Assembly (NCBI GenBank): GCA_963715985.1
Contig: CAVQSP010000014.1
Span: 544,001-608,000 of the forward strand
Direction of reading: 5' to 3'
DNA length: 64,000 bases
DNA from: an uncultured Thermoleophilia bacterium
Lineage (GTDB): Bacteria; Actinomycetota; Thermoleophilia; UBA2241
Made by a program: the position numbers and the translations under genes. This document shows positions 3 through 40,912 of this stretch, piece after piece (the stretch's first letter is position 1; each line of letters begins with the position of its first letter). A model generated the notes under the pieces. That model did no database searches, had not been told where the DNA came from, and worked only from the letters and a program-made list of their open reading frames with translations.

Positions 3-758
3 GGCTGCGCGCACCGCGGCGTGTTCGTGGCCCTGCGCCGCCTGCGCACCTTCGTCAGCGGCGACATCGGCTGCTACAGCCTCGCCGCGCTGCCGCCGTT
101 CGAGGCCATGCACTGCAGCACCTGTATGGGCGCCGGCATCAGCATGGCGCACGGCATGGCCAAGGTGCTCGACGAGGAGGCCGACCACCGCAACCGCCCG
201 GTGGCCATCATCGGCGACAGCACCTTCTTCCACTCCGGCATCACGTCACTCCTCGACATCGCCTACAACCGCAGCGACGTGCTCACCATCATCCTGGACA
301 ACCGCACCACCGCCATGACCGGCGGCCAGGAGAACCCGGGGATGGGGAAGACCCTGTCGGGCGCGCAGGCGCCGGACGTGGACATCCCCGCCCTCGTCCG
401 CGCCCTCGGCATCTCGCGAGTGAGGGAGATCGATCCGCTCAACGTGGCCGAGACGCAGGCGGTGCTCAAAGAGGAGATCGCAGCGCGCGAGCCGTCGGTG
501 GTCATCGCCACCTCGCCGTGCGTGCTGGAGTACCGCATCAAGCGCGAGGCCTACCGCGTCGACCCCGACCTCTGCACCGGCTGCAAGGTCTGCCTCAAGG
601 CGGGGTGCACGGCGCTGAGCCTGTACCTGAACGACGAGGGTGAACGGCGCGTCGAGATCGACCCCACCGCCTGCAGCGGCTGCAGCGTCTGCTCGCAGCT
701 CTGCAAGTTCGAGGCCATCATCGGTCCTGAGACCGCCGGCGGAGAGGATGCACGATGA
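3..758 (+). CDS. iorA: Indolepyruvate:ferredoxin oxidoreductase alpha subunit (5'-truncated by window edge)
   Basis: GCAHRG..., SGDIGCY, TPP motif GDSTFFHSG...DN, TAMTGGQ, C-terminal 2x CxxCxxC ferredoxin. Confidence 0.93.
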   Translation, partial: GCAHRGVFVALRRLRTFVSGDIGCYSLAALPPFEAMHCSTCMGAGISMAHGMAKVLDEEADHRNRPVAIIGDSTFFHSGITSLLDIAYNRSDVLTIILDNRTTAMTGGQENPGMGKTLSGAQAPDVDIPALVRALGISRVREIDPLNVAETQAVLKEEIAAREPSVVIATSPCVLEYRIKREAYRVDPDLCTGCKVCLKAGCTALSLYLNDEGERRVEIDPTACSGCSVCSQLCKFEAIIGPETAGGEDAR

Positions 759-1381
759 GCGCACGTCCGACCTTCAACATCCTCATCTCCGGCGTCGGCG
801 GCCAGGGCGTGGTGCTGGCCAGCTACGTGCTCAGCCGCTGCGCCCTGGCCGAGGGCTACGACGTCAAGCAGAGCGAGGTCCACGGCATGGCCCAGCGCGG
901 CGGCTGTGTGACCAGCCACCTGCGCTTCGGCGACAAGGTCTACTCGTCGCTCATCACGCCCGGCACGGTGGACGTGCTGCTCTCCTTCGAGTCCGTGGAG
1001 GCGCTCCGCTACGTGCACTGGCTGAAGCCCGGCGGCCTGCTGGTCTACAACATGACGCGCGTGAACCCGAGCACCGTCTCGTCCGGGGCCGAGGAATACC
1101 CGGAGGGCCTGGCCGAGCGCATCGCGGAGGCCTGGCCCAACGTGCGCGCCCTGGACGCCAGCGCGCTGGCCGCCGAGGCCGGCACCGTCAAGGCGGCCAA
1201 CGTCGTGATGCTGGGAGCCATGGCGAGCGCGCTGCCCTTCGCGCCCGAGACGCTCGAGGACATCATCCGCCGCTCGGTGCCTCCGAAGACGGTCGACGTG
1301 AACCTCAAGGCGTTCCAGCTCGGCCGCGCCGTGCAGTCGGGCACGAGCGACGAGGCCGTGCCGGCCGCCGCCGGCGCATGA
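755..1381 (+). CDS. iorB: Indolepyruvate:ferredoxin oxidoreductase beta subunit
   Basis: GVGGQG, SEVHGMAQRGG, ANVVMLGA; ATGA overlap with iorA. Confidence 0.93.
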   Translation: MSARPTFNILISGVGGQGVVLASYVLSRCALAEGYDVKQSEVHGMAQRGGCVTSHLRFGDKVYSSLITPGTVDVLLSFESVEALRYVHWLKPGGLLVYNMTRVNPSTVSSGAEEYPEGLAERIAEAWPNVRALDASALAAEAGTVKAANVVMLGAMASALPFAPETLEDIIRRSVPPKTVDVNLKAFQLGRAVQSGTSDEAVPAAAGA

Positions 1382-1475
1382 CGGCGAAGTCCGGCGGGCG
1401 GCCGCAGGTGCAGCCGCATCACGATAGCACCGGCCACCGCGTGGGCCGCAGACTGAGCGAAAGGACACCGCCGCC

Positions 1476-2100
1476 ATGAAGAGCACCACCTGGCAGGACG
1501 ACCACCCCTGGACCCACATCGACTGGGAGTTGAACGACGTCACCCCGTACCAGCTCAACTGGTTCTGGTGCAACATGGAGAAGGGCGACTACCTCTGGCA
1601 CCCCAACCAGCACAAGGGCTTCGAGTGGTGGATCAGCCTGGAGGAGGCCGGCGGCCCTCTCGGCAGCGTCCACATCGCGCCGCAGACGTGGAACGACGGC
1701 GTCAAGATCCGCCCGTACATCAAGTTCCCGCAGGCTTGAGGACGTCCCCGCCGAGATCAGGGACCTCATCAAGTACGACCACGTCGTCATCGCCGGCGCG
1801 ATCAGCATCCTCGGCGACAACGTGAAGCCCGACGATCCTGTGCTCGGCTACCGCGTGCACCAGTGGCAGAAGAGCGACAACGGCTGCGTCGGCATGTCCT
1901 CGGCCGTAGAGGCCAAGGAGAACGCGGCCGACGACGGGCTCATCTGGGCCGCTCACGCCAACGAGGAGGTCGGCAACTGGGAGGTCTTCCTGCCGACGCT
2001 CGTGCGCCTCTACCGAGTGATCACGGATCCCGAGATCGCCCCGTACTACTCCTTCCGGGTGGAGGGCGTGGGTCGCGAGGCGCGGTACGCAGAGCTCTGA
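1476..2100 (+). CDS. Short divergent DAPG-hydrolase (PhlG/phloretin hydrolase) family protein; frameshift near 1737
   Basis: VTPYQLNWFW, YLWHPNQH, C-terminal AAHANEE...FLPTL; ORFs 1476-1739 and ~1738-2100 join. Confidence 0.65.
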
Positions 2101-2234
2101 GAGACAAAGCGCCTGCAGCCAGCAGGAGGCGGCGACCGACAACGGAAGCTGCGGCGCCGTCGGCAAGCAGGAGGCGATGGGTGTGACCTGCAACGTGTCC
2201 CGATCCTGTAGAGGCCGGTGACTGGGGGTATGCG

Positions 2235-3104
2235 ATGCTGAAGTTCATGCTGGCCAGCCGGAGCAAGCCGGAGCACACGAAGGAGCGTTACTACTTCGAG
2301 TGGGGCATCATCCACGTCGCCCTGATGGTGACCACCCCCACGGTGGTGTCGACCTTTCGCCGGTACGCCCAGCACTTCGTCCCGGATGGGCTCGACGGAG
2401 ACAGACTGCTCTTCCCGTTCTCTGAGATGGGCTGGGAGAACATGGCCGACCACTGGCTCGAGACCTGGGACGACCTCGTCCTCCCGTTCAAGTCCGACGA
2501 CTATCCCAACCGCATGCAGCCGCACAACTTCGGCGACAGCACCTTCGACCTGCAGCTGATGACCGGGGAGGAGCTGTACGCGGACGACGGGTACTACGCC
2601 GGCGGCGTGAAGCTGGTGCACTTCCTGCACCGGCGGCCGGACATCAGCCTGGAGGACTTCAAGGCGAAGTACCGCGCGCACGCCGAGCTGCTGCTGGCGG
2701 AGGGCGTGGGCCGGGGGCTGGTGCGCAAGTGCGTGCAGAACACCGAGACGCAGGGCGACCCCAAGTACTTCAAGGGGACGCTGTTCGAGCTCGGTGGGGT
2801 GAACACGTACTCCGGGGTCGAAGAACTGTGGTTCGACGACGTGGGCGCCGTCTATGAGTTCTGCGGCGACCCTGAACGGCGGGCTGCCCTGCTGGAGAGC
2901 TACGCCGGCTTCGCCGACGAGCAGACCTACTCCATGGTGACGACCGAGCGCGTGGTGTTCGACTGGGTCACTCCGGGCCACATCAGTCCGCAGCCGGCGG
3001 TGCTGCAGGAGGGCACCCTGGAGGCCGCGATCGACGGGCAAGGCTACAGAGGCTGGAGCGTACCCGGGTGGGAGAAGCGGACACGCCAGAACCGCTCGAC
3101 GTGA
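2235..3104 (+). CDS. Duplicated EthD-domain (dimeric alpha+beta barrel) protein
   Basis: KFMLASRSKP...YFEWGIIHVAL...RRYAQH and KLVHFLHRRPDISLEDF...AHAELL...VQN...GVEELWFDD. Confidence 0.75.
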   Translation: MLKFMLASRSKPEHTKERYYFEWGIIHVALMVTTPTVVSTFRRYAQHFVPDGLDGDRLLFPFSEMGWENMADHWLETWDDLVLPFKSDDYPNRMQPHNFGDSTFDLQLMTGEELYADDGYYAGGVKLVHFLHRRPDISLEDFKAKYRAHAELLLAEGVGRGLVRKCVQNTETQGDPKYFKGTLFELGGVNTYSGVEELWFDDVGAVYEFCGDPERRAALLESYAGFADEQTYSMVTTERVVFDWVTPGHISPQPAVLQEGTLEAAIDGQGYRGWSVPGWEKRTRQNRST

Positions 3105-4247
3105 CGCAGGCGGGTCCTGCCGGGAGTCCGCCGCCCGCCGGTGCCGGTGACGCGCGTCCCGCGGGCCAGTCCGAGCTCAGCGGGGGTCGCGCAGACGCTT
3201 TCGCCGCGGTGCTCATGGCGTTCGTGGCCCTGCAGACCGTGGGCATCGCGCTCATCCCGGTGGTCACGCCGTTCCTGAAGGACCACTACCAGCTGAGTGA
3301 CGCGCAGATCGGTCTGCTCACCTCTGCGTTCGCTCTTGCGGTCGCGCTCACGTCGATCCCCATGGGCCTGGCCACGGCACGGTGGGGCGGCCGGACGCTG
3401 CTCATCGCGGCCGCCCTCTTCCTGGCCGGGAGCCTCGTGTTCGCCGCCGCCGACTCCTAATCTGGTTTCTGGTGGGTCGCTTCATCCAGGGCATGGGCGC
3501 CGGGACAGGCCTCGGCACGGTCGGCACGCTGCTCATCATGCCGAGCATCGCCGCAGCCGGCGGGTACCACGCCGTGTTCATCGCGGCGGCGGTCTTCGGC
3601 GTCGCGCTCGCGGCGGCGGCGGTCTCACTCAGGGCCCTGCGGTCGCGGCCGGCGTGGAGCGACGCCCAGACCGTCGGCGCACTGATGCGCGCGCTCGGCA
3701 GGGCGGCCCTCAACCCGGGCGTCCTCGTGATGGCCGTGATGAACCTGACCGTCGTGGCCGTGGTGGTCGGCGTGCTCACGTGGACGCCGCAGTTCCTGCA
3801 CGACATGCACGGCGCATCGCTGGCTGTGGCGGCGTATCTCACCGCCACCATCGGTCTCTCGCAGACGGTGGGCAACCCGGCCGGTGCTGGAGCCATGACA
3901 CGCTGGGGCAAGAACGCAGTGCTCGTCGTCGGCTTGGGGCTGCTGGCCGTCTCGACGGCGCTCGTCCCCCTGGGTCCGGGGATCGTCGCGACCTTCATCG
4001 CGGTCATCGTGACCACGTTCCTTGCGGGAGCGATGCTGCCGCCCAGCCTCGCCATCGTCGCCGACGTGGCTCACGGCAACGAGGCGGTGGGCGCTGTCAC
4101 CGGTCTCATCGGCCTGTTCAACGTGGTCGGCTCGATGATCGCGCCTTGGATGTTCGGCGTGCTGCTGGACACGTACGGCACGGCGCCTGCTACCTCACGG
4201 CTCTGGTGAGTCCAGCCGTTCGGAGACCTCCGCGGCGGTCTTCTTGA
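3101..4247 (+). pseudogene. MFS transporter, frameshifted with an apparent internal deletion (3' end approximate)
   Basis: TM helices, G-x3-ARWGGR motif A, GRFIQGMGAG; stop at 3458; the TM4-TM5 segment appears to be missing. Confidence 0.7.
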
Positions 4248-5063: not shown

Positions 5064-5505
5064 CTACTCGGCCAGCGGCAAGATCGCTTGGAACGTGGGG
5101 CTCTCGAAGACCTTGCCGAGGCAGGCGCCGCTCTCCTGGAGCTTGGCCTTGCCCACCGAGTAGCAGACGCAGAACGCGACTTCCATGAGCTCCTCGTCGG
5201 TCGCGCCGGCCGCCTTGGCGTTGCACGCCTGCGGCAGCACGCCGTCCCCCAGTGGCCGTTCATCATGGAGAGGCCCACGAGCAGCGGGTAGCGCGTCTTG
5301 GGCTCGAGGATACCCCGGTCGAGCTGACCGGTGAGTCGGCTCTGCGCGAACGCGTGCAGCATGTCCGACCTGTTCTTGACCGAGAAGTCCAGGCTGGGAT
5401 CGTCCGCCGGCTTGCCGTACCCCGGCCGCTGCTTGGCCCACGACGCGAGGACCTCCTCGGCGGCCGTCCGCGCGTACGGTTCCGTTCGGGTCCGGTGCCG
5501 GTTGG
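5064..5505 (-). CDS. Carboxymuconolactone decarboxylase/AhpD-like protein; frameshift near 5250, start codon not visible
   Basis: GILEPKTRYPLLVGL...ACNAKAAGATDEELMEVAF; GAGGAG RBS near 5510 but no ATG after it. Confidence 0.6.
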
Positions 5506-6454: not shown

Positions 6455-7668
6455 CTACTGAACGACCACGGTCCCGTGGTGGCACTGCGGACCCATCCAG
6501 CACTGCCATTCGTAGGAGCCGGGGGCCAGGCCGCTGGAGTGCCAGGTCAACGGGTCGGGATAAGCCCTGGTCTTGGTCAAGTCGCTCGCCGTCGTGAAGA
6601 AGATGGTCCTCCAGCACAGCATCCTGGCGCCGGTGAAGACGATGTCTACCGGCTTGTTCGCGGGCACCGTCGTCGTCGAGTCGAGGGGGTCCGAGTCGAT
6701 CGTCACTTGCTGGGCGGTCCGTCGACCACCAGCGTGCCGTAGTGGCAATCGTCCATCCAGCACTTCCAGGCGTAGCGCCCGTAGTCCAGGCCGGCCGTGT
6801 GCCAGATGAGGGGATCGGCGCTCGACTGCGCGAAGACACGGGAGTCGAACGCGATGCTCCGGTTGCAGCCCATGCCCTGGTCTGAGACGTCGCCGAAAGA
6901 GATGTCCGCCGGCAGGTACGGCAGGGCGTGCGTGTCGGCGTGGGAGGTCTGGGCGATGTCGATGTGCTGGGCGACGACCAGGCAGCCGGTGCCCCACTTG
7001 GGCATCGCGTCGCGCATCCAGTCGTAGCGCCCGGGGCGCAGACCCGAGGTGCGCCAGACCAGCCCGTCGGCGCTCACCTGCTCGAAGTCGCCCCAGATGA
7101 AGTGCGCGGCGCCGTTCTTCTTGGGGTCGTTGGAGGCCCAGTCGGCGGGGGTGCTGAACACGATCTCGAGCGGCGTGTCCGCGGGGGCCACGGTGTCCCG
7201 GAGCGCCGCCGTCAGCCACCCGTTGACGTTGGAGTCGATGGAGATGCGAAGAGCGGCCGGCTGGACGTCGAAGCGCGTCAGGGCGGACCTCTTCACGAGC
7301 TTGCCACCGCGATACTGGAACGCGCGGACGGCGTGTTCGCCCTCCGTCGGCACGGTGATCCGGCACGTGTACGCGGTCCCAGACGCGCCGTCGGGCGCCT
7401 TGGAGAGCGTGGCGCGGCACGTATCGATGACGTTCCACTGCCCGTCCGTGAGCTTGTACAGCTTGACGTCCACCGTGGCGCGAGACGACGTGGCCGACTT
7501 GGGCTTGATCACCCCGGAGACGTCGAAGGGTGCGCCTGCGACGGGCTCGGCCGAGACCTCCGGCTGGCTCACCGCGTAGGTGATCTTGGCGTTCGCCACC
7601 CCGGGCAGGCCGACGAAGAACGCCAGCACGAGTGCCGCCAGCAGCAGTCGCTTCACGGGACGTGACAT
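6455..7668 (-). CDS. Secreted protein with three tandem cupredoxin-like domains; frameshift near 6716
   Basis: Signal peptide MSRPVKRLLLAALVLAFFVGLPGVANA; repeats LxWxxxGLxxGxYxWxCWMxxxCHxGTxVV; GGGAGG RBS. Confidence 0.6.
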
Positions 7669-7720
7669 GGTTTCCCTCCCAACGTCGCGGCGCCGAGCGT
7701 GGCCCCGGCGCCTCCCCGGC

Positions 7721-7765
7721 GTCATAGTACATTATGTATAGGCGCACTTATAGCATTCTATGTAG
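7721..7765 (-). promoter_or_regulatory. AT-rich promoter region with TAGAAT/TATAAG -10-like boxes and a TACA-N3-TGTA palindrome (7728-7738)
   Basis: Only AT-rich patch upstream of the cupredoxin-like gene. Confidence 0.45.
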
Positions 7766-7923: not shown

Positions 7924-8030
7924 GGACTACCGTGCCTGGCGCCGCCTCGTCCTCGCGCACTATCGCGGTGATGGCGTCCTTGAACGGGGCCAGTTGGGAG
8001 CCCCCGGCGCTGCCTGCGCGGCGGCTGGGC
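7924..8030 (-). mobile_element. Possible IS21-family IstA transposase remnant
   Basis: RRAGSAGGSQLAPFKDAITAIVREDEAAPGTVV resembles the IstA N-terminal S-K-L-x-P-F-K-x-x-I...P-x-T-V segment; no IRs or istB found. Confidence 0.35.
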
Positions 8031-8114
8031 AAGTCCGGCAGACTCCCGCCGCCCGCTCTTTCTGACGCAGGGTGGCGCAAGCCTTCCCGCGGCGCCGGCG
8101 CGCGTGCGAGGCCG

Positions 8115-9048
8115 TCAGGGTGCCGCGTCTGGCGGAACCGGCGGGCCTTCGCTCCACGAGCCGGTCGATGAGGCGCGGTAGTCGTCCAGCCGCCCGGTGA
8201 CATCGCCCTGACACCGGTACGCCGCCTCCACGGCGAGGAAGAGGAAGACGTGCGTCAGCATGATGTCGCGCTGGTCGTACTGGTCGTCCCAGGCCGCGCG
8301 CATGGCGACCTGCTCGATGGCGCCGTAGAGGCTGTAGGCCATGAGCTCGTCGGAGACCGGGGGAGAGGCTGGCCTGGGCCGCAGCGCGGCGAGGTCGGCG
8401 GCGGGCCCGGCGGCGATGAGGCGCAAGCGCCTCCTGCACGGCGGCGCGGGTCTCCGCGTCTTCCTGAAGGGCCTCCGCGCGCGCCAGGCCGAGCAGGTCG
8501 GGGCTCAGGCGCTGCAGGCCCCAGAACGCGTAGGTCCGCATGATGAGCCGCACGACGGGGTCGGGCTCCTGCGCCAGCGGCGGCTCGATGAGGCCGCTCA
8601 TCCAGCGCACGAACACGTTGAACGACTCGATGAACAGCTGCCGCTTGGTGGCGAATTGCGTGTAGAACAGCGGAGGCGTGACGCCGGCCTCCGTGATGAT
8701 GTCGGCGAGGCGGGTGCGTTTGTACCCCTTGCGCGCGAACTGGCGCGCCGCCGCCTGCAGGATCGCGGCGCGCGTCTCCGCGGCGCGCCGCGCCACGAGG
8801 TCGGGCTCGGCCGCGGTCTGGCGCTCGAGGAGCGGGCGGATGCTCGTCTTGATGGCCTCGAGGTCGGCGCCGGCGTGCTTGAGCCGGCGGATCTCCCCGA
8901 GCAGCTCGACGTGCACATCGCTGTAGAGGGCGCGGCTGGCGGCGGCCTTCTGGGCGGCCGGCAGCAGGCCCTCGCGCACGTAGAAGTAGATCGTGCTGCG
9001 CGGCGTGCTCGTGGCCGCTTCGAGCTCCGTGATCGTGAGCGCCTTCAC
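8115..9048 (-). CDS. MerR-HTH + TetR fusion transcriptional regulator #1; frameshifts near 8425 and 8175
   Basis: LTITELE...RSTIYFYVREGLLP...RALY (MerR) followed by TRAAILQAAARQFARKGY..TRLADI...FYTQFATKRQLF (TetR). Confidence 0.85.
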
Positions 9049-9098: not shown

Positions 9099-9128
9099 TT
9101 GACAGGACGGACCGCGTAACTCTAGCAT
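9099..9128 (+). promoter_or_regulatory. Sigma70-type promoter of the flavoprotein/hydrolase operon
   Basis: TTGACA-N18-TAGCAT, followed by AT-rich ATGTATAGtccTATAGCA. Confidence 0.5.
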
Positions 9129-9222
9129 ACGAACCAGTGATGTATAGTCCTATAGCAGAGGTCGCTGCTCTGGTGGATGGACCGTCTGCGTGGATGCTCG
9201 AGCGGGGAGGTCCGGGTCTGCC

Positions 9223-11190: not shown

Positions 11191-11193
11191 CGA

Positions 11194-12058: not shown

Positions 12059-12088
12059 CCGTCGCAGCCAGAGGGGAGAGGTGACCGC

Positions 12089-12871: not shown

Positions 12872-12932
12872 GCGCGCCGTTCGTGAGCCGCTCGCGTCCC
12901 GTTCCAGCCATCGCCACCCGGAGGTCACGCTG

Positions 12933-13772: not shown

Positions 13773-13794
13773 AGCCGGGCAGGGAGGAACCCCT

Positions 13795-14589: not shown

Positions 14590-14593
14590 TGCC

Positions 14594-15610: not shown

Positions 15611-15614
15611 CATG

Positions 15615-29803: not shown

Positions 29804-29862
29804 TGGACGTGCGGACCCGAGTCACCGTCCTCGGCGTCCCGGAGCTCACGGGGGGGTCCAGC

Positions 29863-30747: not shown

Positions 30748-33489
30748 GCGCCCGGGCGGAGCAGCCCGCCGCTCAGGCCGCGCCCCGCGGCGGCAACCGC
30801 TTCGTGTCCGCCGCGTTGTTCGCGAAGCTGGCCGTCATCGCGGTGCTGGCCGTGTGGCCATTCTTCTACAGCGATCTCTACACGCTCAGCTGGATGACCT
30901 TCGCCGGCCTGTCCCTGATGGTCGTGGTCAGCGTCTACCTCATCATCGCGCAGGCCGGTCAGCTCTCGTTCGGTCACGCCGCCTTCTACGGCGTCGGCGC
31001 CTACACGGCCGCGATCCTCTCGATGAAGTACAACGTTCCCACGCTCTTGGCGCTGCTGGCCGGCGCCGCACTTGCGGGTCTGATCGCGGTCGTCATAGGA
31101 CGCCCGGTGCTGCGCCTGCGCTACTTCTATCTGGCGCTGGCGACGATCGGCCTCGGCATCATCTTCAGTGCCCTCATCGTCGAAGCGCGCGGCGTGACCG
31201 GGGGCACTCTCGGCCTCGCGCCGGTGCCGCCCCTCGATCTCTTCGGGTTCAAGGTGGACACCTACATGCGCCAGTACTACGTCGTGTGGATCGTCGCCTT
31301 GCTCATCCTGCTGTTCACCGAGCGCGCCCTCGGCATGCGTGTCGGTCGCGCCCTGCGGGCCCTCGCGACGAGCGAGATCGCGGCGGAGACCCTCGGCGTG
31401 CGCACCGCGAACTGGAAGCTCGTGGCGTTCGTCGCCAGCGCCGTCTTCTGCGCCATCGCCGGCGCGCTGTACGCCTTCACGCTGGCGGCGATCACGCCCG
31501 GGGCGTTCGCCTTCGGCGCCGCCATCCTGCCGATCATCATGATGCTGATCGGCGGCGGCGGGTCCATCTGGGGCGGGCTGGTCGGAGCCGTGCTGATGAC
31601 GTGGCTCTCCAACTCGCTCTCCGGCACGCAGCAGTGGAGCGGGGTGATCTACGCCGCCATCATGATCCTCCTGCTCCTGTTCCTGCCGATGGGCATCACC
31701 GGGTTGTTCACGAAGCGCCGCCTGGTCAGCGTGAAGACCGCCTTCCGCCGGCAGAGCCGGGCCGAGACGCTCGAGTGCGCCACCGTGGCGGAGGCCGACG
31801 GTTCCACCGCAGCGTGCGAGACGCAGGTGGCGCTGCCGGTCTACGTGCCCGAGCACGCGAATCCCGCGCTCGACGAGGGTTCGCCGGGTACCCTGTTCGC
31901 CGACCTGCGGCGGCAGGGGTCGGGGAACGAGGGAGAAGAGCTGCTGAGGATCCGGGACGTCTCCGTCGACTTCGGCGGGCTGCGGGCGGTGAACGAGGTC
32001 TCCCTGGACGTGCGCACGGGGCAGATCGTCGCCCTCATCGGGCCGAACGGCGCCGGCAAAACGACACTGTTCAATGTGATCAGCAGGCTGCAGCGTGCCT
32101 CCGGCGGGCAGGTCTGGCTCGGCGGCGAGGAGATCACCCACATGTCGCCGGCGGCGAGCGCCCGCCTGGGGATGGCTCGTACCTTCCAGAACCTGCGCAT
32201 CTTCGAGAACATGGACGTCCTCGAGAACGTCCTCGTCGGGTGTCACCGGCACGAGAGGGCGGGGCTGATCGCGGGCGGGCTCGGCCTGCCGAAGCAGCGC
32301 CGCGAGGAGGAGGGCCTCCAGGGCCCGCGCCTTGGATGCTCTGCGACTGGTCGGCCTCGATGCCAACGCGCACCAGCCGGCAGCGAGTCTGCCCTACGGG
32401 CAGCAGCGCTTGGTGGAGATCGCCCGGGCGCTGGCGTCGGAGCCGCGCCTGCTCCTGCTGGACGAGCCGGCCGCCGGCATGAACGCGGCCGAGCGCGAGT
32501 ACCTGGTCGACCGCATCCGCCGCATCCGCGAAGCGGGCGTCACGGTGCTGCTCGTAGAGCACGACATCGAACTCGTGATGGGTCTGTGCGACTGGGTCAC
32601 CGTGCTCGACTACGGCCGGCTGATCGCCGACGGCGTGCCGGACGACGTGAAGAAGGATCCGGCCGTCATCGAGGCGTACCTCGGCGTGGGCCACGAGGGC
32701 GTGGGCGACGAGTGCGGCGACCTCAGCGCCGCGCAGGTCGCGATCGCCGCGAAGCTTCCGACACGCCGGCTGCCGAGGGCCTCCTGGAGGTCCGCGGCGC
32801 TCTCGACCCGCTACGGCGCCATCCACGCCCTTCAAGATGTGTCGCTCGACGTGTCCAAGGGCGAGATCGTCGCCGTCCTCGGAGCCAACGGCGCCGGCAA
32901 GACCACGCTGCTTCACACCATCTCGGGCGTGTTGCGCCCGAGCGCCGGATCCATCACCTACGCGGGCGCGAACATCACCAGGCTCGCCCCCTCGAAGATC
33001 GTCGGCCGCGGCGTCTGCCAGGTGCCCGAGGGACGCCGGCTCTTCCCGTCGCTCTCGGTCGAGGACAATCTGCTCCTGGGCGCCTCGGGGCGCCGCTCGC
33101 GAGACAGCGTGCCCGACGACCTCGCCTACGTCTACGACCTGTTCCCGGTGCTTGCGGATCGTCGCGCCCAGCACGCTGGGACGTTGTCCGGCGGCGAGCA
33201 GCAGATGGTCGCCATCGGCAGGGCGTTGATGGGCAAGCCCGACCTGCTGTTGTTGGACGAGCCGTCCATGGGGCTCGCTCCGCTGGCAGTGGAGCGGATC
33301 TTCGAAGCGCTCAAGGCGCTCAACGACCAAGGCCTCACCATGCTGATGGTGGAGCAGAACGCGGAGATGGCGTTTTCAGTGGCCGATCGTGCCGTCGTGC
33401 TGCAGACCGGATCGGTGGCCCTCACGGGTCTCACGACCGACTTGCGACGGGACGAGCGCGTGAGGGAGTGCTACCTGGGTCAGGCCTGA
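30744..33489 (+). CDS. Fused LivM permease + LivG ATPase + apparently LivF ATPase; frameshifts near 32310-32330 and 32750-32800
   Basis: AGQLSFGHAAFYG; GPNGAGKTT, ARTFQ, LPYGQQRLVE, EAYLG; then GANGAGKTT, VPEGR, LSGGEQQM, VEQN. Confidence 0.75.
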
Positions 33490-33535
33490 CCCGCAGCTCT
33501 TGTCAGTGAACAGGGAATCAACACAAGGGGGAGCG

Positions 33536-34788
33536 ATGAAGCAAACGCAAGTGGATGGTGGTGCGCTCGTGGCGCTGCTCGTGCATCGCCGGCCGGCCCT
33601 CGTCCTCGGCGGCTGCGGCAGTTCCGAGGGAGTCGGGTGACGGCTCGAGCGCGTCGGCGTCGCCGGCCGCCGCCGCGCACGCATGAAGGTCGGCTTCGTC
33701 AACTCCGCGACCGGCGTGAGCGCGGCGCCCAACCAGTCGATCGTCGGGCTCGACGAGGGTCGCGGTCGACCAGATCAACGGCAGCCGGCGGCATCGACGG
33801 CAAGATGGACGATCGAGCTCCTCAGCAAGGACGACGGCTCGGACGTCGCCAAGGCGTCCGCCGCGGTCACCCAGCTGATCCAGCAGGACAAGGTGGACTT
33901 CATCCTCCAGCCGTGGGTCGACTTCATCGCCCCCGTCGCGCGCGGCATCGAAGAGAAGGCCGGCATGCCCGGCGTGCTCTCCTACGCTCCTCAGAAGGGC
34001 AAGGAGACCGAGGCGTTCAAGTGGACGTTCAGCAACGCGCAGGGCGCCAAGGACAACGCCGACGCGCTGGTCAAGGTCTTCGCCGACAAGGGCTGGAAGA
34101 ACGGTGGTCGGGGCCGCCGACGTGCTCACCATCCAGCAGGAGACGCTCGACTACGTCGCGGAGATGGCCCCCGCCGCAGGCATCACGTTCACCAGGCTCA
34201 AGCGACCAGTGGCCGCTCGACCAGACGGACTTCAGCGGCGTCGCGTCCAAGGTCGTCGCTGCCTGTGACAAGGCCAAAGCGGACGCGCTCTGCCTGATGG
34301 TGACGGCGCCGCAGGCCGACGCCTTCATGAAGGCCCTCAAGGGCGCCGGGCTGGACATCCCGGTCATCAGTGGTCCTACGCTCGCGTCGGCCATCCCGCT
34401 CTTCGCCCAGGGCACGGAGAACGTCGACGGCATGAACTTCATCGCCACCGCCGTCACGGCCGGGCCTCAGCTTCCGGACAGCTACCCCGGCAAGCCGATG
34501 ATCGCCGGCATGTACGAGGCCGTCATGGCCGAGACCAACGCCCCGCCGGACACCTTCGCCGGGTGGGCCGCCGACGCCGTCAACCTGATGGCTGAGGCCG
34601 TCACGAAGGCCGGCAGCACCGACAAGGCCGCCGTCCGTGACGCCTTCGAGTCCATCACCGACTTCCAGGGCCTGTCCGGCGTCTATAGCTACTCCGCCAC
34701 CGATCACGTGGGCATCCACGGCCAGATGTGGCTGTTCCAGATCAAGAACGGCGAGTACGTCCTCCAGGGCGACGCACCCGTCAACTGA
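33536..34788 (+). CDS. Liv-type ABC substrate-binding lipoprotein; multiple frameshifts
   Basis: LGGC lipobox, KVGFVNSATG, DD.SD...LIQQDKVD, QTDFS, GSTDKAAVRDA...GLSG.YSYS..DH. Confidence 0.75.
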
Positions 34789-34904: not shown

Positions 34905-35835
34905 GTGCGCGCGCTGACTATCGGGGAGCTTGAGCAGGAGTCCGGGGTCCCGAGGCACACGATCTACTACTACGTCCGCACGGGGCTGCTCCCGCCGGCG
35001 CAGAAGGCCAGCCCCAGCCGCGCCCTGTACACGGACGACCATCTGGAACTGCTGCGGGACATCGAAGCGCTCAGACGGCAGGGCCTGCGGCGGTCGGCCA
35101 TCAGATCGAGGCTCGAGCCCAGGCTGCGCGCCGCCGGCGAGAACGGCGTCGACCTTGTGGCCAGACGTGAGGAAGAGACCCGTCAGGCCATCCTGGCCGC
35201 CGCTGCACGCCGATTCGCCACCAAAGGGTACAGAGGCACGAGGATGCAGGACCTCGTAGCTGAGCTCGGCATCACACCGCAGGTCCTGTACGGGCAGTTC
35301 GCGACCAAGAGGGAGCTCTTCGTCGCCTGCTACAAGGTGGCCGTGTCCTATATGAACACGTTGCTGCGACCGCAGTTCGAGAGCGCGCAGGACCAGGCCG
35401 AGGTCCAGGTGTGGGGCATGTACGCCGACTCCGGCATCAAGGCGTTCGCGCCGAACCTCATGATGCTCGCCCTGGAGGCCGCGCAGCACGACGATGAGGC
35501 GCGGCGCGACCTGCGGGAGGCGTACGACACCATCCTGGCCAGTACGGTCGCGGACTTCCGAAGCATGCGCAGCTCGGAGACCGAACCTCCGTTCGCCGAC
35601 GAGCTCGTGACCCACGCCATCCTCGGCGCGTTCGAGCAGATGCTCGCCCGTGCCTCTCTCGACGACGAGTACACGTGGCGCGACTGCGTTCACAACGCTT
35701 TGGGCCTGTTTCTCGCGGTCAGGGCGGTCTACCAGGGCGAGATCGACCTCAGCTCGCTCACTGACACGCTATGGCGAGCTCCTCGACGAGGTAGCAGCAC
35801 TGCCTCCGCCGGTCCCGCAGGAGCTCAAGCCGTAG
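34905..35835 (+). CDS. MerR-TetR fusion regulator #2; frameshift near 35764
   Basis: LTIGELEQESGVPRHTIYYYVRTGLLP...; TRQAILAAAARRFATKGY. Confidence 0.87.
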
Positions 35836-35974
35836 AGGCGATGCGCCGGGCGGCTGCGGTCGCCTGCGGCCGCGGCAGCCGACCCACGGACCCACACTTC
35901 ACGCAGACGCACGGTGCCCCCGCGCACGCGAGGGACGCCATGAGACACAGCACCGACGACGGCAGGGAGGCCGC

Positions 35975-36627
35975 ATGTCCACCAGCTCACCGACGCCATC
36001 CTCGCCATGGATGAGCAGGGCGCGCTGAGGATCGTGAAGGAGCGTCTTGACGGGGGAGAGGCCCCCGAGGCGGTCCTCGACGACGCCCGCGCCGCGATGA
36101 CCACCCTCGGCGAGAAGTTCGCCTGCGAAGAGGCCTTCATCCCCGAGCTCATCATGGGCGGCGAGATCATGAAGGGCATCGCCGCCGAGCTCAAGCCGCG
36201 CATCACGACGCAGGACACGGCGGAGAAGCGCGGCACCGTCGTCATCGGCACGGTGCATGGCGACATCCACGACATCGGCAAGGACGTCGTCGTGATGATG
36301 CTCGAGGTCTCCGGCTACGACGTGCACGACCTCGGCGTCGACGTCCCCGTCGAGACGTTCGTCGCCGCGATCCGCGAGCACGCGGCGCAGGTCGTCGCGC
36401 TCTCCGGTCTGCTCACGCTCGCCTTCGACTCGATGAAGCACACGATCGACGGCATCGCCTCTGCCGGCCTGCGCGGCCAGGTCAAGATCATGATCGGCGG
36501 CTCGCCGGTGGACGCGCAGGTGTGCACCTACACCGGCGCCGACGGCTGGGGCCGCGACGCGGCCGCCGCCCTCGCGATGGCTGCCGAGTGGACCGCCGTC
36601 GCGGCGGGCCGTGGGGAGGAGTCGTGA
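35975..36627 (+). CDS. Corrinoid (B12-binding) protein, MtaC/OdmA-like; indel just after the start
   Basis: FIPELIMGGE cap domain; GTVHGDIHDIGK, DLGVDV, LSGLLT, IMIGG. Confidence 0.92.
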
Positions 36628-37883
36628 CCACGAACCTCGAGGGCACAGAGCTCGCCGCACGGCGTCTGAAGCTGTTCGAAGACGCGGTCGCCCTGCGCAA
36701 GCCGGACCGCGTCCCCCTGATGCCCCTGGCGCTCCAGTACTTCCACACCAGGGTGGCCGGCGTGTCGGACAAGGACGCCGGCTATGACGCGCAGCTGAAC
36801 TTCGCGTGCCTGCGCGACGCCACGGTCCGCTTCGGCTGGGACTGGGCACCTGGCATGGCGGTCCCGCCGTCCGGTTCGCTGCAGGCGCTCGGCTCCAGGC
36901 AGATCCGCTGGCCCGGCGGCGACCTGCCGGACGACGTGCAGTTCCAGTGGGTGGAGGGGGAGTACCTCAAAGCCGACGAGTACGACGCATTCCTCTCGGA
37001 CCCGACGCGCTTCACCCTGCACACGTTGTGGCCGCGCATCGCCGGCGCCTTCGGCGTGCTCGGCGAGCTGCCGCTGCCGCCCATCTGGTGGCTGAACACC
37101 ATGTACCTCCCGCTGGCCTGGGGGGCGCTGCTGGGAGCGCCCCCGATGACGGCGATGTTCGAGGCGCTGGCGGAGATGAGCCGGGACGCGGGCGCCTTCA
37201 TGGCGGCGTTCGGCCGCTTCATGGGGGAGATGGCGGCGATGGGCTATCCGGTGGCCTTCATCGCCGTCACCAAGGTGCCCTTCGACACCGTCTCCGACGA
37301 CTACCGCGGCCTGCGCGGCAGCACCACGGACCTGTACCGGCAGCCGGAGAAGCTGCAGGCTCTGATGGACATGCTGACGCCCATGGTCATCGGCCAGGCG
37401 ATCGGCGGCGCCAAAGGCAGCGGGAACCCACGGGTGTTCATCCCGCTGCACCGGGGCGCCGCCGGCTTCCTCAGTGACGAGCAGTTCGCCAAGTACTACT
37501 GGCCGGGGCTCAAGGCCGTCATCATGGCGCTGCTCGACGCCGGCCTGACGCCCTGCCCCTTCTTCGAGGGCGACTACACGCCGCGCCTCAAGTACCTCGC
37601 GGAGCTGCCCCCGGGCGTGGTGGCGGCGCACTTCGACCGCACCGACCGCAAGAAGTTCAAGGAGATCTGCGGTGACGTGCTGTGCTTCTGGGGCGACGTG
37701 CCCGGGTCGCTCATGGTCACCGGGAAGCCCGAGGAGGTCAAGGAGTACGTCAAAGGGCTGATCGACGACTTCGGCGACACCGGCGGGCTCATCATCGACG
37801 GCGCCAACTCGATCACCGAGGAGGCCAGGCCGGAGAACGTGATGGCGCTGCGCGAGGCGGTGGACGAGTACGGGATCCTCTGA
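36624..37883 (+). CDS. UroD-superfamily corrinoid methyltransferase (O-demethylase MT-I or MtaA-like)
   Basis: KPDRVP, VPFD.VSD.YRG, FIPLHRG, FLSDEQFAKYYWP, FFEGD, GDVP..L..G, ENV.A. Confidence 0.85.
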   Translation: MTTNLEGTELAARRLKLFEDAVALRKPDRVPLMPLALQYFHTRVAGVSDKDAGYDAQLNFACLRDATVRFGWDWAPGMAVPPSGSLQALGSRQIRWPGGDLPDDVQFQWVEGEYLKADEYDAFLSDPTRFTLHTLWPRIAGAFGVLGELPLPPIWWLNTMYLPLAWGALLGAPPMTAMFEALAEMSRDAGAFMAAFGRFMGEMAAMGYPVAFIAVTKVPFDTVSDDYRGLRGSTTDLYRQPEKLQALMDMLTPMVIGQAIGGAKGSGNPRVFIPLHRGAAGFLSDEQFAKYYWPGLKAVIMALLDAGLTPCPFFEGDYTPRLKYLAELPPGVVAAHFDRTDRKKFKEICGDVLCFWGDVPGSLMVTGKPEEVKEYVKGLIDDFGDTGGLIIDGANSITEEARPENVMALREAVDEYGIL

Positions 37884-37994: not shown

Positions 37995-39119
37995 CTACTT
38001 TCCCTGTACCGAGTCCACCATCGCCTTGACGTTCTCGAACTTGGCGTTGGGCGGCAGCGCGCAGCCCATGGCCATGATGAAGCCGTCCGGTCCGACCTCC
38101 GTGAGCAAGCGGTCGCAGTAGGCCTTGACCTGGTCGACCGAGCCGAGCGTCAGGAGCGCGGGCGGCACATCGCCCATCAGGCACATGTGCCCGCGCAGGA
38201 TCTCCTTGGCGCGGAAGATGTCGGTAGCCCCGTCGGTCGCGAGGACGCAGGTGCGCGCGGGCAGCTCAAGCAGGCGCTCGATCTCGCGGTCCCAGCAGGC
38301 GTCGTAGTGCAGCATCGGGATGCCGCCCTCCTCCGCCACGATCTCCACGAGCTCCTTCATATACGGCCACACGAAGCGGTCCCAGAGCTTGGGGGAGAGG
38401 AACTGCGGCGCGGTGCGCCAGCTGCCGACCCAGTAGCCGAAGGGCCCGATGGCGCGGATCATCTGGCGGGTCTGCTCGCGCTTCTCGGCCATGATGGCCT
38501 GCATCGCCGCCTCGACCTTGTCGGGCCTGGTGAACAGGTCCACGGTGAATTCCTTGATGCTCCGCCCGCCGCAGAGGTGTTCGTAGGGGTGGTCGACGGT
38601 CATGGCGCTGAACACCACGTAGCCGCGTCCCATGAACTCGCCGACCCAGCGCGGCGCCTTCTCCTGCATCGCCGCGCCGGCCGCTGCCGCATCGCCCAGG
38701 TACTGGCCGAGGTACTGGCCGAACCAGGGCCCCCAGCCCATCTCGACGATCCGGTCGTAGTCCTCCGGCTGGATGCGCACCTGCTCGTCCAGCTGCCACA
38801 GGGCGTCATCGGGGAGGTCGCGACCGGGGAGCTTCATCGGCGCGAGCCAGAGCATGCCGAGGATGGCCGGGGCGTAGGAGGCCCACTGCACGGAGTCGAC
38901 GTCGCCGAGCTTCTCCGTGGCGGCGAGCATCGTCTGGCCGGCGACGTCCAGGTCGGCGACGAACTCCGAGTACTTCACGCCCATGGTGTTGCAGGCGAAC
39001 GTGTCGAGCACCAGCGAGAGCGGCACGCGGTCGGGAGTGCCGCAGTGGATCGCTGTCTGGATGCGGCCCATCCGCTCGAGGAAGAGCGGGTTCGGAGGCG
39101 GTCCTTGCATCTCGGCCAT
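37995..39119 (-). CDS. UroD-superfamily corrinoid methyltransferase #2
   Basis: TPDRVP, FLSPKLWDRFVWP, LHYD, TDIFRAKEIL.GHMCLMGDVP, GC.LP.NAKFENV. Confidence 0.87.
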   Translation of the reverse strand: MAEMQGPPPNPLFLERMGRIQTAIHCGTPDRVPLSLVLDTFACNTMGVKYSEFVADLDVAGQTMLAATEKLGDVDSVQWASYAPAILGMLWLAPMKLPGRDLPDDALWQLDEQVRIQPEDYDRIVEMGWGPWFGQYLGQYLGDAAAAGAAMQEKAPRWVGEFMGRGYVVFSAMTVDHPYEHLCGGRSIKEFTVDLFTRPDKVEAAMQAIMAEKREQTRQMIRAIGPFGYWVGSWRTAPQFLSPKLWDRFVWPYMKELVEIVAEEGGIPMLHYDACWDREIERLLELPARTCVLATDGATDIFRAKEILRGHMCLMGDVPPALLTLGSVDQVKAYCDRLLTEVGPDGFIMAMGCALPPNAKFENVKAMVDSVQGK

Positions 39120-39120
39120 G

Positions 39121-39754
39121 TCAGCTCACTCCCAGCACGTTCTTGGCGACGACGACGCCGTCCTGAGCGGTCCCGCAGTAGTGGTCTGCGCCGACGTACT
39201 CGGGCGGCCTCTTCGGTCATGGGGCCGCCGCCGACGAGGATCGTCACCTTGTCGCGAAGACCGGCGCGCTCGATCGTCGCGATCGACTCCCTCATCGAGT
39301 CGAAGACGGTGGTGAGGAGCGCGGACATGCCGACCAGCGTGGCGCCGCTCTCGTTGATGGCGTCGACCCACGCTTGAGGGTCGACGTCCACGCCGAGATC
39401 GACGACGCGGATGCCGTTGGACGACAGCACCGTGCCGGCGATGTTCTTGCCGAACTCGTGGATGTCGTTCTTGACCGTGCCGAGCACGATGGTGCCGACG
39501 GCGTTCTGCGAGGCGCTCGCGAGCGCTTCCTGCAGCGGGGCGCCGGCCTGCTTGAAGATCTCGCCGGCGAAGATGAGCTCCGAGAGGTAGTACTCGCCGG
39601 CCTCGAAGCGGTCGCCGACGGCGCCCATCCCGGCCTGGAGCTCGTCCAGGACGGCCAGCGGTGCTTCGCCGGCGGCCAGCTTCTCCTTGACCAGGTCGGC
39701 GGCCTCACCCGCCTGCAGGTCGCTCACCGCCTGGGCGAGAGCTGAGAGTGTCAT
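39121..39754 (-). CDS. Corrinoid protein #2; frameshift near 39200
   Basis: GMGAVGDRFEAGEYYLSEL; GTVKNDIHEFGKN, DLGVDV, MSALLT, VGGGP. Confidence 0.9.
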
Positions 39755-39938
39755 GGAACCTCCTTGATCGGTCACCCGGCTCTTGGTGGTAGTAGATGAA
39801 ATGTGAAATAGAATGCTACCATGTACACCGCTACCAGCTTGAAGGTCAACACGTGTTGTCGCGAGGAAGACGCGGCGGAGAATGGCCTCGTGACATCGTC
39901 ACGAGCGGTCTCGACGGTGACGGAGCCGGGGGAGAGGC

Positions 39939-40912
39939 GTGCGCGTCCTGACGATCGGTGAACTGGAGCGAGAGAGCGGGGTGCGCCGGCGGACGATCTA
40001 CTACTACGTCCGCCACGGCTGCTGCCGGAAGCGCAGAAGTCGAGCCCGAGCCGCGCGCTGTACACGGAGGACTACCTCGCGCTGCTGCGGGACATCGAGG
40101 CCATGCGCGGACAGGGTTTGAGGCCGGCGGAGGTGCGGTCGAGGCTCGCGGGGCGCGTGAGGGCGGCGGGCGACCACGAAGTGGACCTCGTCGCCCGCCG
40201 TGACAGGGAGACGCGGGACGCGATCCTGCGCGACTGCTACGCGCAGTTTCGCGCGCAAAGGGTACAAGGGCACGCGCATGGCCGACCTCGTGGCGGAGCT
40301 CGCCATCACTCCGCAGGTGCTGTACTCAGCACTTCGCCACGAAGCGGGACCTCTTCGTCGCCTGCTACAAAGTGGCCGTGAGGTACATGGCGGACTACTT
40401 GGCGCCACACTACGAGGACCTCGACGACCCCGGCGAGCGGCTGGTCTGGTACATGTACGCAGACTACGGCATCAAGGCGTTCGCGCCCGACATGTTCGCG
40501 CTGGCGCTGGAGTGCCGCCCAGCACGACGAGGAGGCTCGACGCGACCTGCGGGAGGCGTACGAGACGATCTTCCGCGAGCCGATCGCGGATCTGGAGCGG
40601 CTCCGCACGGTCCGACCGACGAACCCCCGATCTCCGACGAACTCATGAGCCACGGGCTCATGGGGGCGTTCGAGCAGATGCTCGCCCGCGCCACCCTCGA
40701 CGACAGGTACTCGTGGCGTGAGGTCGATGCGGACGGCGCTCGGCTTCTTCCTTGCGATGGCGGCGGCCTACCGGGGGGACGTTGGCCTGAGGGCGCTTCT
40801 CGCGCCGTACGACCAGCTTCTGGACGAGATCGCCGAGCTGCCGCCGCCAGTGCCGCCGGAACTCAGCAAGGAGCTTGACCAGTCGACCACTGCACACGCG
40901 AGGGAAGCCTGA
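39939..40912 (+). CDS. MerR-TetR fusion regulator #3; multiple frameshifts
   Basis: MRVLTIGELERESGVRRRTIYYYV; FARKGYKGTRMADLVAEL; MYADYGIKAFAP, GAFEQMLARA shared with #2. Confidence 0.8.

Follow-up and report, generated by a model that had tools for sequence, protein, structure and literature searches.

The 64,000-nucleotide stretch analysed here (the window, G000:C14:544001-608000; G+C 69%) comes from the genome of an uncultured Thermoleophilia bacterium (G000). Its first 41 kb carry genes for a chalcone isomerase (CHI)-like protein, for hydrolases of the PhlG/phloretin hydrolase family, and for flavoproteins with their own ferredoxins. We called open reading frames (ORFs) by third-position G+C and scanned 76 of them against Pfam and 39 against NCBIfam. 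Every component listed in the initial annotation, which had been made from the letters alone, was recovered by Pfam, NCBIfam, tblastn or hhalign. The enzymes of anaerobic flavonoid breakdown are established for no more than a few gut Firmicutes. We lean towards reading the window as the bulk of an island with which a wetland bacterium catabolises flavonoid-type polyphenols anaerobically. This reading draws on family membership, conservation of catalytic residues, fold, synteny, a gene fusion found elsewhere, a predicted complex and genomic context, from which we infer the enzymatic steps and the use of flavonoids as substrates, more tentatively still in the case of methoxylated ones. The genes that matter most for this reading are the following.

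1476-2100, plus strand: p207, a short, remote PhlG-family protein of 207 aa (hhalign and Atlas matches), with a frameshift near 1734
2235-3104, plus strand: EthD-domain protein 1, EthD1 (EthD, E 4.3e-10)
9190-9477, plus strand: 2x[4Fe-4S] ferredoxin 1 (Fer4 families; 86% identity with the orthologue in the related genome G013)
9474-11188, plus strand: flavoprotein 1 of the FrdA/SdhA superfamily, ~570 aa (FAD_binding_2 and Succ_DH_flav_C)
11194-12058, plus strand: PhlG-family hydrolase 3, PhlG3 (DAPG_hydrolase, E 5.7e-63), with a frameshift near 11389
12089-12871, plus strand: bacterial-type CHI-like protein, 260 aa (Chalcone_N)
12933-13772, plus strand: PhlG-family hydrolase 1, PhlG1 (DAPG_hydrolase, E 1.3e-71)
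13795-14589, plus strand: EthD-domain protein 2, EthD2, 264 aa (EthD, E 4e-13; 96% identity with G013)
14594-15502, plus strand: PhlG-family hydrolase 2, PhlG2 (DAPG_hydrolase, E 5.3e-63)
16629-21254, plus strand: a trio of vanillyl-alcohol oxidase (VAO)-type flavoprotein (536 aa), iron-sulfur protein with Fer4_8 and two CCG domains (439 aa) and second VAO-type flavoprotein (568 aa)
27857-28036 and 28081-29803, plus strand: ferredoxin 2 and flavoprotein 2 (tblastn with G013 proteins, Pfam), the latter with a frameshift near 28577

When the CHI-like protein was compared with the Protein Data Bank (PDB) by phmmer, the only matches were Eubacterium ramulus CHI entries, with 3zph aligned in three collinear segments at E 6.4e-11. 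The Chalcone_N family (PF18232) matched above its gathering cut-off (36.5 bits vs 25) and reached 38.5 bits in a genome-wide search. An AlphaFold (AF2) model, built from a 35-sequence alignment, had a mean confidence (pLDDT) of 89.7 and is predicted to adopt the two-domain ferredoxin-like CHI fold; its Foldseek matches through rank 10 were all E. ramulus CHI chains (4c9s/3zph; E 8e-19, TM 0.75-0.80), and the next fold followed at E 9e-5. The initial annotation had staked its reading on the likeness of this gene to the E. ramulus enzyme, and that likeness was found in both sequence and predicted fold. His33 is given as the catalytic base of E. ramulus CHI in the available passages of PMC9694015, and H26 of the window protein aligns to it, being at least 90% conserved in the 35-sequence alignment. 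The position of Asp36, which polarises His33 through water, is taken by Glu29, acidic but longer and nearly invariant in the family. On present evidence from sequence and model, the protein probably works like CHI, yet it appears to belong to a distinct subfamily that has lost most of the lid of the E. ramulus enzyme. This lid-less subfamily is widespread among environmental bacteria: 132 proteins were found, and metagenome-assembled genomes (MAGs) that hold such loci include Proteobacteria, Acidobacteriota, Desulfobacterota, Chloroflexota and Bacillota. Separately, genomes of family f4 in the same class (e.g. G027:C9:92815-93111 and G102:C4:439080-439379) matched Chalcone_N at 90-100 bits (E 1e-26 to 1e-28), far nearer to the E. 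ramulus type than the window protein, and the class therefore holds two CHI subfamilies.

The initial annotation had counted four PhlG-family genes. Three of them are canonical: PhlG1, PhlG2 and PhlG3 scored 213-241 bits against PF18089 (DAPG_hydrolase; cut-off 22.7). Among solved structures, PhlG1 comes nearest to the phloretin hydrolase 5xey (E 6e-38), followed by PhlG (3hwp) at 5.8e-28, while PhlG2 is about equally near to 5xe5 (E 1.5e-28) and 3hwp (E 9e-28). Since the scores against NF047887, the NCBIfam equivalog for 2,4-diacetylphloroglucinol (DAPG) hydrolase, were only 101.8 and 100 bits vs a cut-off of 600, the window hydrolases are not PhlG orthologues. We take the Zn ligands of PhlG to be His129, Glu160, His270 and Glu274, a numbering supported by the constant +8 offset to the 3hwp chain, and H112, E145, H253 and E257 of PhlG1 align to these positions. 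The same H/E/H/E pattern was invariant in all seven proteins compared (PhlG1, PhlG2 and PhlG3 of the window, the orthologues of these in G013 and two of the fused proteins described below). The fourth gene, p207, is short and remote, and its Pfam scan gave zero matches; hhalign placed it with PhlG (probability 90%, E 1.5e-6), all 30 of its 30 protein Atlas matches carry PF18089, and three of the four Zn-ligand positions are retained.

Two flavoprotein/ferredoxin pairs are present, as had been noted, but the name AprAB-like given to them did not hold, with aprA at 61 bits vs a cut-off of 642 and aprB at 21.7 bits vs 136. The best family for the flavoprotein was the FrdA/SdhA-like PRK08275 (157.8 bits vs a cut-off of 587). 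Judged by sequence, the flavoproteins are divergent members of the FrdA/SdhA/AprA/NadB superfamily and not AprA. In an alignment to E. coli FrdA, the flavoprotein had no counterpart of the His in 'RSH', presumably the covalent-FAD His, nor of the His in 'AHYTMGG', which we take to be the fumarate-binding substrate site, and fumarate is therefore an unlikely substrate.

What sets flavoprotein 1 apart is its coupling to a hydrolase. With an extra C at 11166 removed, its TGA stop lies at 11186-11188 and the ATG of PhlG3 at 11194, leaving a gap of 5 nt preceded by a GAGAGGAG ribosome-binding motif. Close homologues from short-read data are 568-575 aa long and end in ...ERS followed by the stop. 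For this genus we discarded the idea that the flavoprotein and PhlG are naturally fused: an ORF of 840 aa in G013 and the open frame 1 of the window are artefacts of different indels, an extra G at window position 11116 in G013 and the extra C at 11166 in the window. True fusions exist elsewhere. Fourteen protein clusters of 803-836 aa, with 36-39% identity over at least 98% of the query, bear PF00890, PF02910 and PF18089 together, and a scan of metagenome contigs gave at least 418 matching stretches; among the 69 loci retained from these are some from human gut and bioreactor metagenomes. In the cultured Holophaga foetida DSM 6591, the flavoprotein and PhlG genes are adjacent, and several further paralogues of each are present, with about six PhlG copies in all; a CHI-like gene occurs there too.

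A physical association of the two proteins was also predicted. The modelled complex of flavoprotein 1 and PhlG3 reached a median interface score (ipSAE) of 0.75 in three runs, against 0.00 for the best of three controls; in calibration, 116 of 157 solved complexes attained this mark, as did 2 of 215 mismatched pairs, counts that apply only roughly here, where our own alignments were used. At least 97% of the contacts were common to the runs, with partner pLDDT at or above 90. The predicted interface involves flavoprotein residues 253-259, 287-288, 294 and 332-338, and PhlG3 residues including 144-146, near the Zn-ligand Glu151. To our knowledge, there is no solved complex of this kind.

The usual candidate for the reductase step was not found in the genome. 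PF00724 (Oxidored_FMN), the family of the old yellow enzyme (OYE), had no match in the window or anywhere in G000, which is 88.8% complete, whereas 13 of 14 control genomes matched; the initial annotation, which had recognised no OYE-type Fcr or Flr gene in the window, is thus borne out for OYE across the whole assembly. Given the adjacency, the fusion, the predicted interface and the absence of OYE, the most economical reading is a reductase of chalcones or enones whose product passes to the hydrolase, and from sequence and model the flavoprotein is a candidate non-OYE chalcone reductase. We propose more tentatively, as an idea that may well fail, that flavoprotein and PhlG together form an unrecognised two-step 'reductive C-C cleavage' enzyme, in which ferredoxin-driven enone reduction would be channelled into Zn hydrolysis to phloroglucinol. 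Thermoleophilia and Holophaga encode the pair as two separate genes, whereas many anaerobes of gut, rumen and digester have it as a fusion. If the proposal is true, the pair would constitute a second, widespread anaerobic flavonoid route, overlooked because annotation schemes look for OYE-type reductases. A literature search gave no link of DAPG-hydrolase-family proteins with FrdA-like flavoproteins or EthD, although the supplementary gene tables of surveys could list such links. The couple is the one concrete new lead; otherwise, the island is a known kind of pathway in variant form.

Around 12 of the 69 fused loci we inspected 63 neighbour ORFs. A short-chain dehydrogenase/reductase (SDR) and a cyclase follow the fusion in L143, a 3-hydroxyacyl-CoA dehydrogenase (3HCDH) and an SDR precede it in L154, and in L156 the fusion has an SDR nearby. 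Adjacent genes include LysR regulators at 5 of these 12 loci and NMO-family members at 3. As a separate observation, fusions in low-G+C gut metagenomes are flanked by an NMO-family (PF03060) FMN enzyme and by carriers of the major facilitator superfamily (MFS) (L169:12860-13828, L173:8982-9962, L175:8773-9753), and L169 has an additional stand-alone PhlG gene.

The association of these modules in other genomes, which the initial annotation had expected, was borne out by a synteny survey and by a sample of the class. The CHI-like protein occurs in 10 of 41 genomes searched, namely G000, 8 of 24 genomes of the same genus, and G027 from another family. For the survey, 20 G013 proteins served as tblastn queries against 79 loci surrounding CHI-family genes; several of these loci are short, which makes absences there weak, and relatives are not independent. 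All 22 loci with at least 71% CHI identity hold two to four PhlG genes and a regulator combining MerR and TetR domains; EthD accompanies them in 20/22, VAO in 11/22 and the flavoprotein in 10/22. Among the other 57 loci, PhlG was found at 5 and p207 at 15. In a 201-genome class sample, DAPG_hydrolase was present in 23 of the 26 genomes with Chalcone_N vs 8 of the 175 without it. After the core, loci of the Gaiellales type carry LysR, a tungsten-type aldehyde:ferredoxin oxidoreductase (AOR), ThiS, a Zn-dependent alcohol dehydrogenase (Zn-ADH), the VAO/CCG trio and a pyrogallol-hydroxytransferase-like Mo enzyme, and the Gaiellales-type loci examined contained no flavoprotein and no OYE enzyme. 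As to habitat, 21 wetland metagenome runs and one soil run hold 27-44% of the sampled words of window 9100-16600. An RNA run (X24), with contigs 92-99% alike to parts of the cluster, was not used as evidence of expression, since DNA carry-over is possible and the organism may differ.

The core is accompanied by genes with proposed roles in aryl-acid processing, transport, O-demethylation and regulation.

3-758 and 755-1381, plus strand: C-terminal part of iorA, cut by the window edge, and iorB (TPP_enzyme_C and Fer4, POR)
3068-4209, plus strand: MFS transporter, frameshifted (MFS_1 matches in two overlapping frames)
7960-9048, minus strand: MerR-TetR dual helix-turn-helix (HTH) regulator 1 (MerR_1 and TetR_N)
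29854-34788, plus strand: Liv-type ABC importer with permeases, two ATPases and a Peripla_BP_6 binding protein (Pfam), frameshifted
34905-36014, plus strand: MerR-TetR regulator 2 (Pfam)
36007-37883, plus strand: corrinoid protein, then UroD-like methyltransferase (B12-binding_2 and B12-binding; URO-D)
37995-39775, minus strand: second UroD-like methyltransferase and corrinoid protein (Pfam, NCBIfam)
~39928-40912, plus strand: MerR-TetR regulator 3, with several frameshifts (tblastn pieces in alternating frames; TetR_N fragment)

Since iorA matched IOR_alpha at E 1.5e-76 and iorB matched IOR_beta at 252.6 bits vs a cut-off of 237 in NCBIfam, their product is by sequence a putative arylpyruvate/indolepyruvate:ferredoxin oxidoreductase (IOR). 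Directly upstream, an ORF that runs from L118:17435-19996 into window 3-758 joins CoA_binding and Succ_CoA_lig domains (an ADP-forming acyl-CoA synthetase) to POR_N, the IorA N-terminus. Either a frameshift run-through or a genuine fusion would account for this ORF, and in G013 the acyl-CoA synthetase and iorA ORFs overlap yet are separate. The closest solved relatives of the VAO-type proteins are 4-alkylphenol oxidases, eugenol oxidase and p-cresol methylhydroxylase, which suggests that para-hydroxyphenyl products are what they act on and that the CCG protein serves as electron outlet. We had also considered the trio as a GlcDEF-like 2-hydroxyacid (aryl-lactate) dehydrogenase feeding IOR, and downgraded this to a minor possibility because D-lactate and glycolate enzymes are not among the closest solved structures.

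For the methyltransferases, the G013 orthologue of the UroD-like protein of 36007-37883 found CdmB (PDB 9rui, E 2.2e-24) as its only solved relative. CdmB belongs to cdmBCA, described in the available text of PMC13222342 as a corrinoid-dependent methyltransferase system of an acetogen. Of the components of an O-demethylase, the search covered the corrinoid protein and the UroD-like methyltransferase, which are each present twice, and the context suggests that these pairs may perform O-demethylation. The Rfam scan of the window gave zero RNA families, hence no cobalamin riboswitch.

In G013, the EthD1 orthologue lies after flavoprotein 2, and EthD2 is unusually conserved (65-94% identity across phyla). 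The AF2 model of EthD2 (pLDDT 74) shows a tandem alpha+beta barrel of CHI/chlorite-dismutase/coproheme-decarboxylase architecture without a specific match; its Foldseek matches to coproheme decarboxylase, chlorite dismutase and bacterial CHI all had TM 0.4-0.5. We rejected EthD2 as a second CHI, as its CHI matches (TM 0.45-0.49, in a model of pLDDT 74) were no nearer than those to coproheme decarboxylase or chlorite dismutase. The 406-aa protein cluster P0254, which shares 93% identity with EthD2, has a DAPG_hydrolase domain in addition to EthD, either through genuine fusion or perhaps as a long-read indel artefact.

The three regulators unite a MerR-type and a TetR-type HTH in one protein of ~310-400 aa, an unusual architecture, and may respond to the pathway substrate as ligand. 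Proteins of this kind also occur at L018:12-1049, L039:6916-8130 and L042:7168-8100, and they stand beside the CHI/PhlG core in all 22 orthologous loci.

Genes that could take up the expected product lie outside the window. One phloroglucinol-type set (C13:488-493 kb, L116) contains an SDR, a 3-hydroxyacyl-CoA dehydrogenase, a cyclase, a cupin and a beta-keto acid cleavage enzyme (BKACE), followed by a Liv transporter and IclR; another (C14:503-512 kb, L117), ~36 kb upstream of the window, contains 3HCDH, BKACE, SDR, a thiolase, a cyclase and a CoA-transferase. Both sets were assigned at family level only. The anaerobic phloroglucinol pathway, as set out in the available passages of PMC10470551, consists of PGR, DPGC, TfD and TAL. 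Just upstream of the window, at C14:536200-540400 (L118:12224-16391), are a pyrogallol-hydroxytransferase-like molybdoenzyme (PF21423) and its Fe-S subunit. The same pair was seen beside the CHI/PhlG core of a Gaiellales genome (L018:14856-18313). The anaerobic character ascribed to the region agrees with the ferredoxins, IOR, tungsten-type AOR, Mo transhydroxylase-like enzyme and corrinoid methyltransferases of the region and its relatives. The proposed extent of ~41 kb held in part: related genes occupy the stretch and continue upstream of the window, but 21.4-27.8 kb is unrelated and several genes are frameshifted as assembled. That segment sits outside the cluster in the relatives G013 and G015, whose clusters are more compact and lack it, and is an unrelated insert interrupting the island. 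The right-hand limit of the island is near 41 kb, where Asp23, FakA/DegV and RecG start.

Taken together, these genes suggest the following route. Aromatics would be imported by the Liv-type ABC system and the MFS carrier, and their O-methyl groups removed by the corrinoid protein and UroD-like methyltransferases. The lid-less CHI-like isomerase would then open the C-ring of a flavanone or flavanonol to the chalcone, and the C=C bond of the chalcone would be reduced by the FrdA-superfamily flavoprotein, fed by its own 2x[4Fe-4S] ferredoxin and replacing the OYE-type Fcr/enoate reductase of gut Firmicutes. PhlG3, a Zn hydrolase and the predicted flavoprotein partner, would cleave the dihydrochalcone to phloroglucinol and arylpropionate, while the other PhlG paralogues and the EthD proteins may handle variant acylphloroglucinol intermediates. 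Phloroglucinol would pass to the pathway of SDR, cyclase, 3-hydroxyacyl dehydrogenase and BKACE, for which the genome has two gene sets, and aryl acids derived from the B-ring may be processed by the VAO-type/Fe-S trio and by IOR with the ADP-forming CoA synthetase. The earlier proposal of a flavonoid/polyphenol island is in this way carried by sequence, fold, synteny and context, including the phloroglucinol set present twice, with its substrate kept conditional.

Several observations weigh against this reading. Identity between the CHI-like protein and E. ramulus CHI is only ~21%; the window protein has Thr66 at the position of the non-catalytic His73, and has lost most of the lid (residues 106-130): query 70-88 spans chain 77-132, ~37 residues fewer. 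A lid-deleted CHI variant is still active according to the available passages of PMC9694015. The wider CHI-like family (<60% identity) is mostly not beside PhlG (5 of 57 loci), and Chalcone_N was found in none of the 63 neighbour ORFs around the 12 fused genes. The flavoprotein, whose direction of reaction and substrate are putative, falls under every curated family cut-off. Among other Actinomycetota, no flavoprotein lies within 10 kb of the CHI/PhlG/EthD core (12 of the 22 orthologous loci), and AOR, Zn-ADH and VAO genes are found instead; the reductase step may therefore differ or be unneeded. Searches of solved structures did not tie the SDR of the phloroglucinol set to phloroglucinol reductase by any decisive match, and gave no match at all for the cyclase, so that the name DPGC is unsupported. 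The source genome is 88.8% complete with 7.3% contamination. Finally, at least 14 frameshifts fall within ~41 kb (by tblastn with intact G013 proteins, and by Pfam frames for the MFS gene), and the extra base at 11166 is not covered by any listed read difference.

Three other explanations were weighed. One holds that the island degrades non-flavonoid acylphloroglucinols (microbial DAPG and its monoacetyl analogue MAPG, or plant and fern compounds), with the CHI-like and EthD proteins performing other isomerisations and the flavoprotein saturating unsaturated acyl side chains ahead of C-C hydrolysis. PhlG itself acts on DAPG, as the available text of PMC8003664 states, PhlG2 is as near to 3hwp (9e-28) as to phloretin hydrolase (1.5e-28), and the CHI-like protein is a distant, lid-less subfamily member; moreover, the fused flavoprotein-PhlG genes inspected have no CHI neighbour and a phloroglucinol pathway nearby would suit any acylphloroglucinol. 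We nevertheless consider this explanation unlikely, because the catalytic His of the flavanone-opening CHI is kept and the fold has no close match other than CHI, phloretin hydrolase is a clearly better match for PhlG1 (6e-38) than PhlG is (5.8e-28), CHI and PhlG co-occur tightly, and the O-demethylase-like modules and pyrogallol-transhydroxylase-like gene point to plant polyphenols. Somewhat less probable still is that the flavoprotein/ferredoxin pairs act outside C-ring cleavage, as soluble or respiratory-type reductases (or dehydrogenases) of aryl-acid products, for example cinnamate to arylpropionate, much as the FrdA-like flavin reductases of gut anaerobes do; the ring would then open to a hydrolysable ketone with no dedicated chalcone reductase. 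The FAD_binding_2 enzymes of anaerobes reduce many unsaturated acids (available text of bioRxiv 10.1101/2022.12.26.521950), the 12 of 22 orthologous loci mentioned above do without a nearby flavoprotein, and flavoprotein 2 is not beside a PhlG gene. Such a role would leave aside the true fusion in 14 protein clusters and many metagenome loci, the 5-nt stop-to-start distance, and the predicted interface (ipSAE 0.75 vs 0.00 for the best control); the covalent-FAD and fumarate-binding His positions of E. coli FrdA, in the roles we assume for them, are not conserved either.

The frameshifts bear on whether the island in G000 is instead a decaying, non-functional remnant whose frameshifts are real mutations. 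Besides their number, the unrelated 6.4-kb segment and rearrangements that split modules contiguous in G013 and G015 would fit such decay. The affected genes are p207, MFS, flavoprotein 1, PhlG3, all three VAO/CCG genes, flavoprotein 2, LivK and regulator 3. In the VAO/CCG trio, each gene has two frameshifts in the window while the G013 orthologues are intact, and p207 has intact 207-aa orthologues in G013 and G015. A nucleotide alignment of window 9100-21300 with G013 showed 57 indels, 49 of them not multiples of three, and the in-gene indels were mostly single bases within short homopolymers. Flavoprotein 1 as assembled has one extra base near 10828 and another near 11166, and PhlG3 has one near 11389; short-read wetland contigs have exactly one base fewer at 10825/10827 and at 11388, which are the sole frameshift sites present in the read table. 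Decay is further opposed by the different frameshifts in the same genes of G013 and G015, by intact short-read homologues of 568-575 aa, by frameshift-split genes elsewhere in G000 (an AOR and a cyclase), and by the unbroken CHI-like, PhlG1, EthD2 and PhlG2 genes, which are 86-97% identical to their G013 orthologues. Most frameshifts are therefore probably long-read consensus indel errors, and we regard a remnant as very improbable.

Previous literature provides the CHI/Fcr/Phy/FLR scheme and polyphenol-gene surveys of peat MAGs (available passages of PMC10470551, PMC9694015, PMC8003664, PMC11153144 and PMC11868195). Like the pathway of E. ramulus and Flavonifractor plautii (CHI, Fcr/enoate reductase, Phy, FLR), the island combines a CHI fold bearing the catalytic His with Phy-family Zn hydrolases, in an anaerobic setting with phloroglucinol as the expected product, whose degradation genes are in the genome. 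It differs in belonging to Thermoleophilia rather than Bacillota, in its lid-less CHI (~21% identical), in pairing the hydrolase, in a genome without an OYE match, with a FrdA-superfamily flavoprotein that has a ferredoxin of its own, and in its 3+1 hydrolase paralogues, EthD partners, VAO/Fe-S trio and corrinoid methyltransferases. The Mycobacterium abscessus phloretin hydrolase (5xey/5xe5) is likewise actinobacterial, is the best solved relative of PhlG1 and is associated with a phloroglucinol pathway (available passages of PMC10470551); no CHI, flavoprotein or EthD association is described there, and the window paralogues are only distantly similar to it. Pseudomonas PhlG (3hwp) shares PF18089 and the four aligned Zn-ligand positions, but the window has no phl biosynthetic context. 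With the FrdA/SdhA/AprA superfamily, including soluble flavin reductases of gut anaerobes, the flavoprotein shares the FAD_binding_2 plus Succ_DH_flav_C architecture and a chemistry typical of C=C bonds conjugated to carbonyl, while its partner is a small 2x[4Fe-4S] ferredoxin instead of FrdB or AprB, and PhlG is coupled or fused to it. The four families of the Clostridium scatologenes phloroglucinol pathway (PGR, DPGC, TfD, TAL) are co-located twice in G000 with a thiolase and a CoA-transferase, although these copies lie outside the island coordinates and the likeness is at family level. Acetogen corrinoid systems (O-demethylases; cdmBCA) have a corrinoid protein and a UroD-like methyltransferase, as does the window.

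Anaerobic flavonoid breakdown bears on the persistence of polyphenols without oxygen in peat and wetlands, the subject of the 'enzyme latch' debate (available passages of PMC10470551 and PMC11153144). The island offers a set of genes, conserved and open to testing, in soil and wetland Actinomycetota that are abundant but uncultured, and a candidate for the reductase step in organisms without OYE enzymes. Since the flavoprotein-hydrolase fusion also occurs in human-gut metagenomes, the idea is directly testable with cloned genes.

The remaining features of the stretch are the following.

5073-5473, minus strand: small conserved gene with a frameshift near 5247, without a Pfam match as called
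6458-7725, minus strand: secreted-looking protein of ~340 aa without a family match
15615-16556, minus strand: regulator with MerR and GyrI-like domains (Pfam)
21413-27439: GAF-HTH regulator, saccharopine-dehydrogenase/carboxynorspermidine-synthase-like gene, APC (amino-acid) permease and M28 peptidase

The DNA of the gene at 5073-5473 is 82% identical to a stretch of the Gaiellales genome G027. The protein of 6458-7725 has an internal repeat, as judged from a self-match downstream at 31-35% identity.

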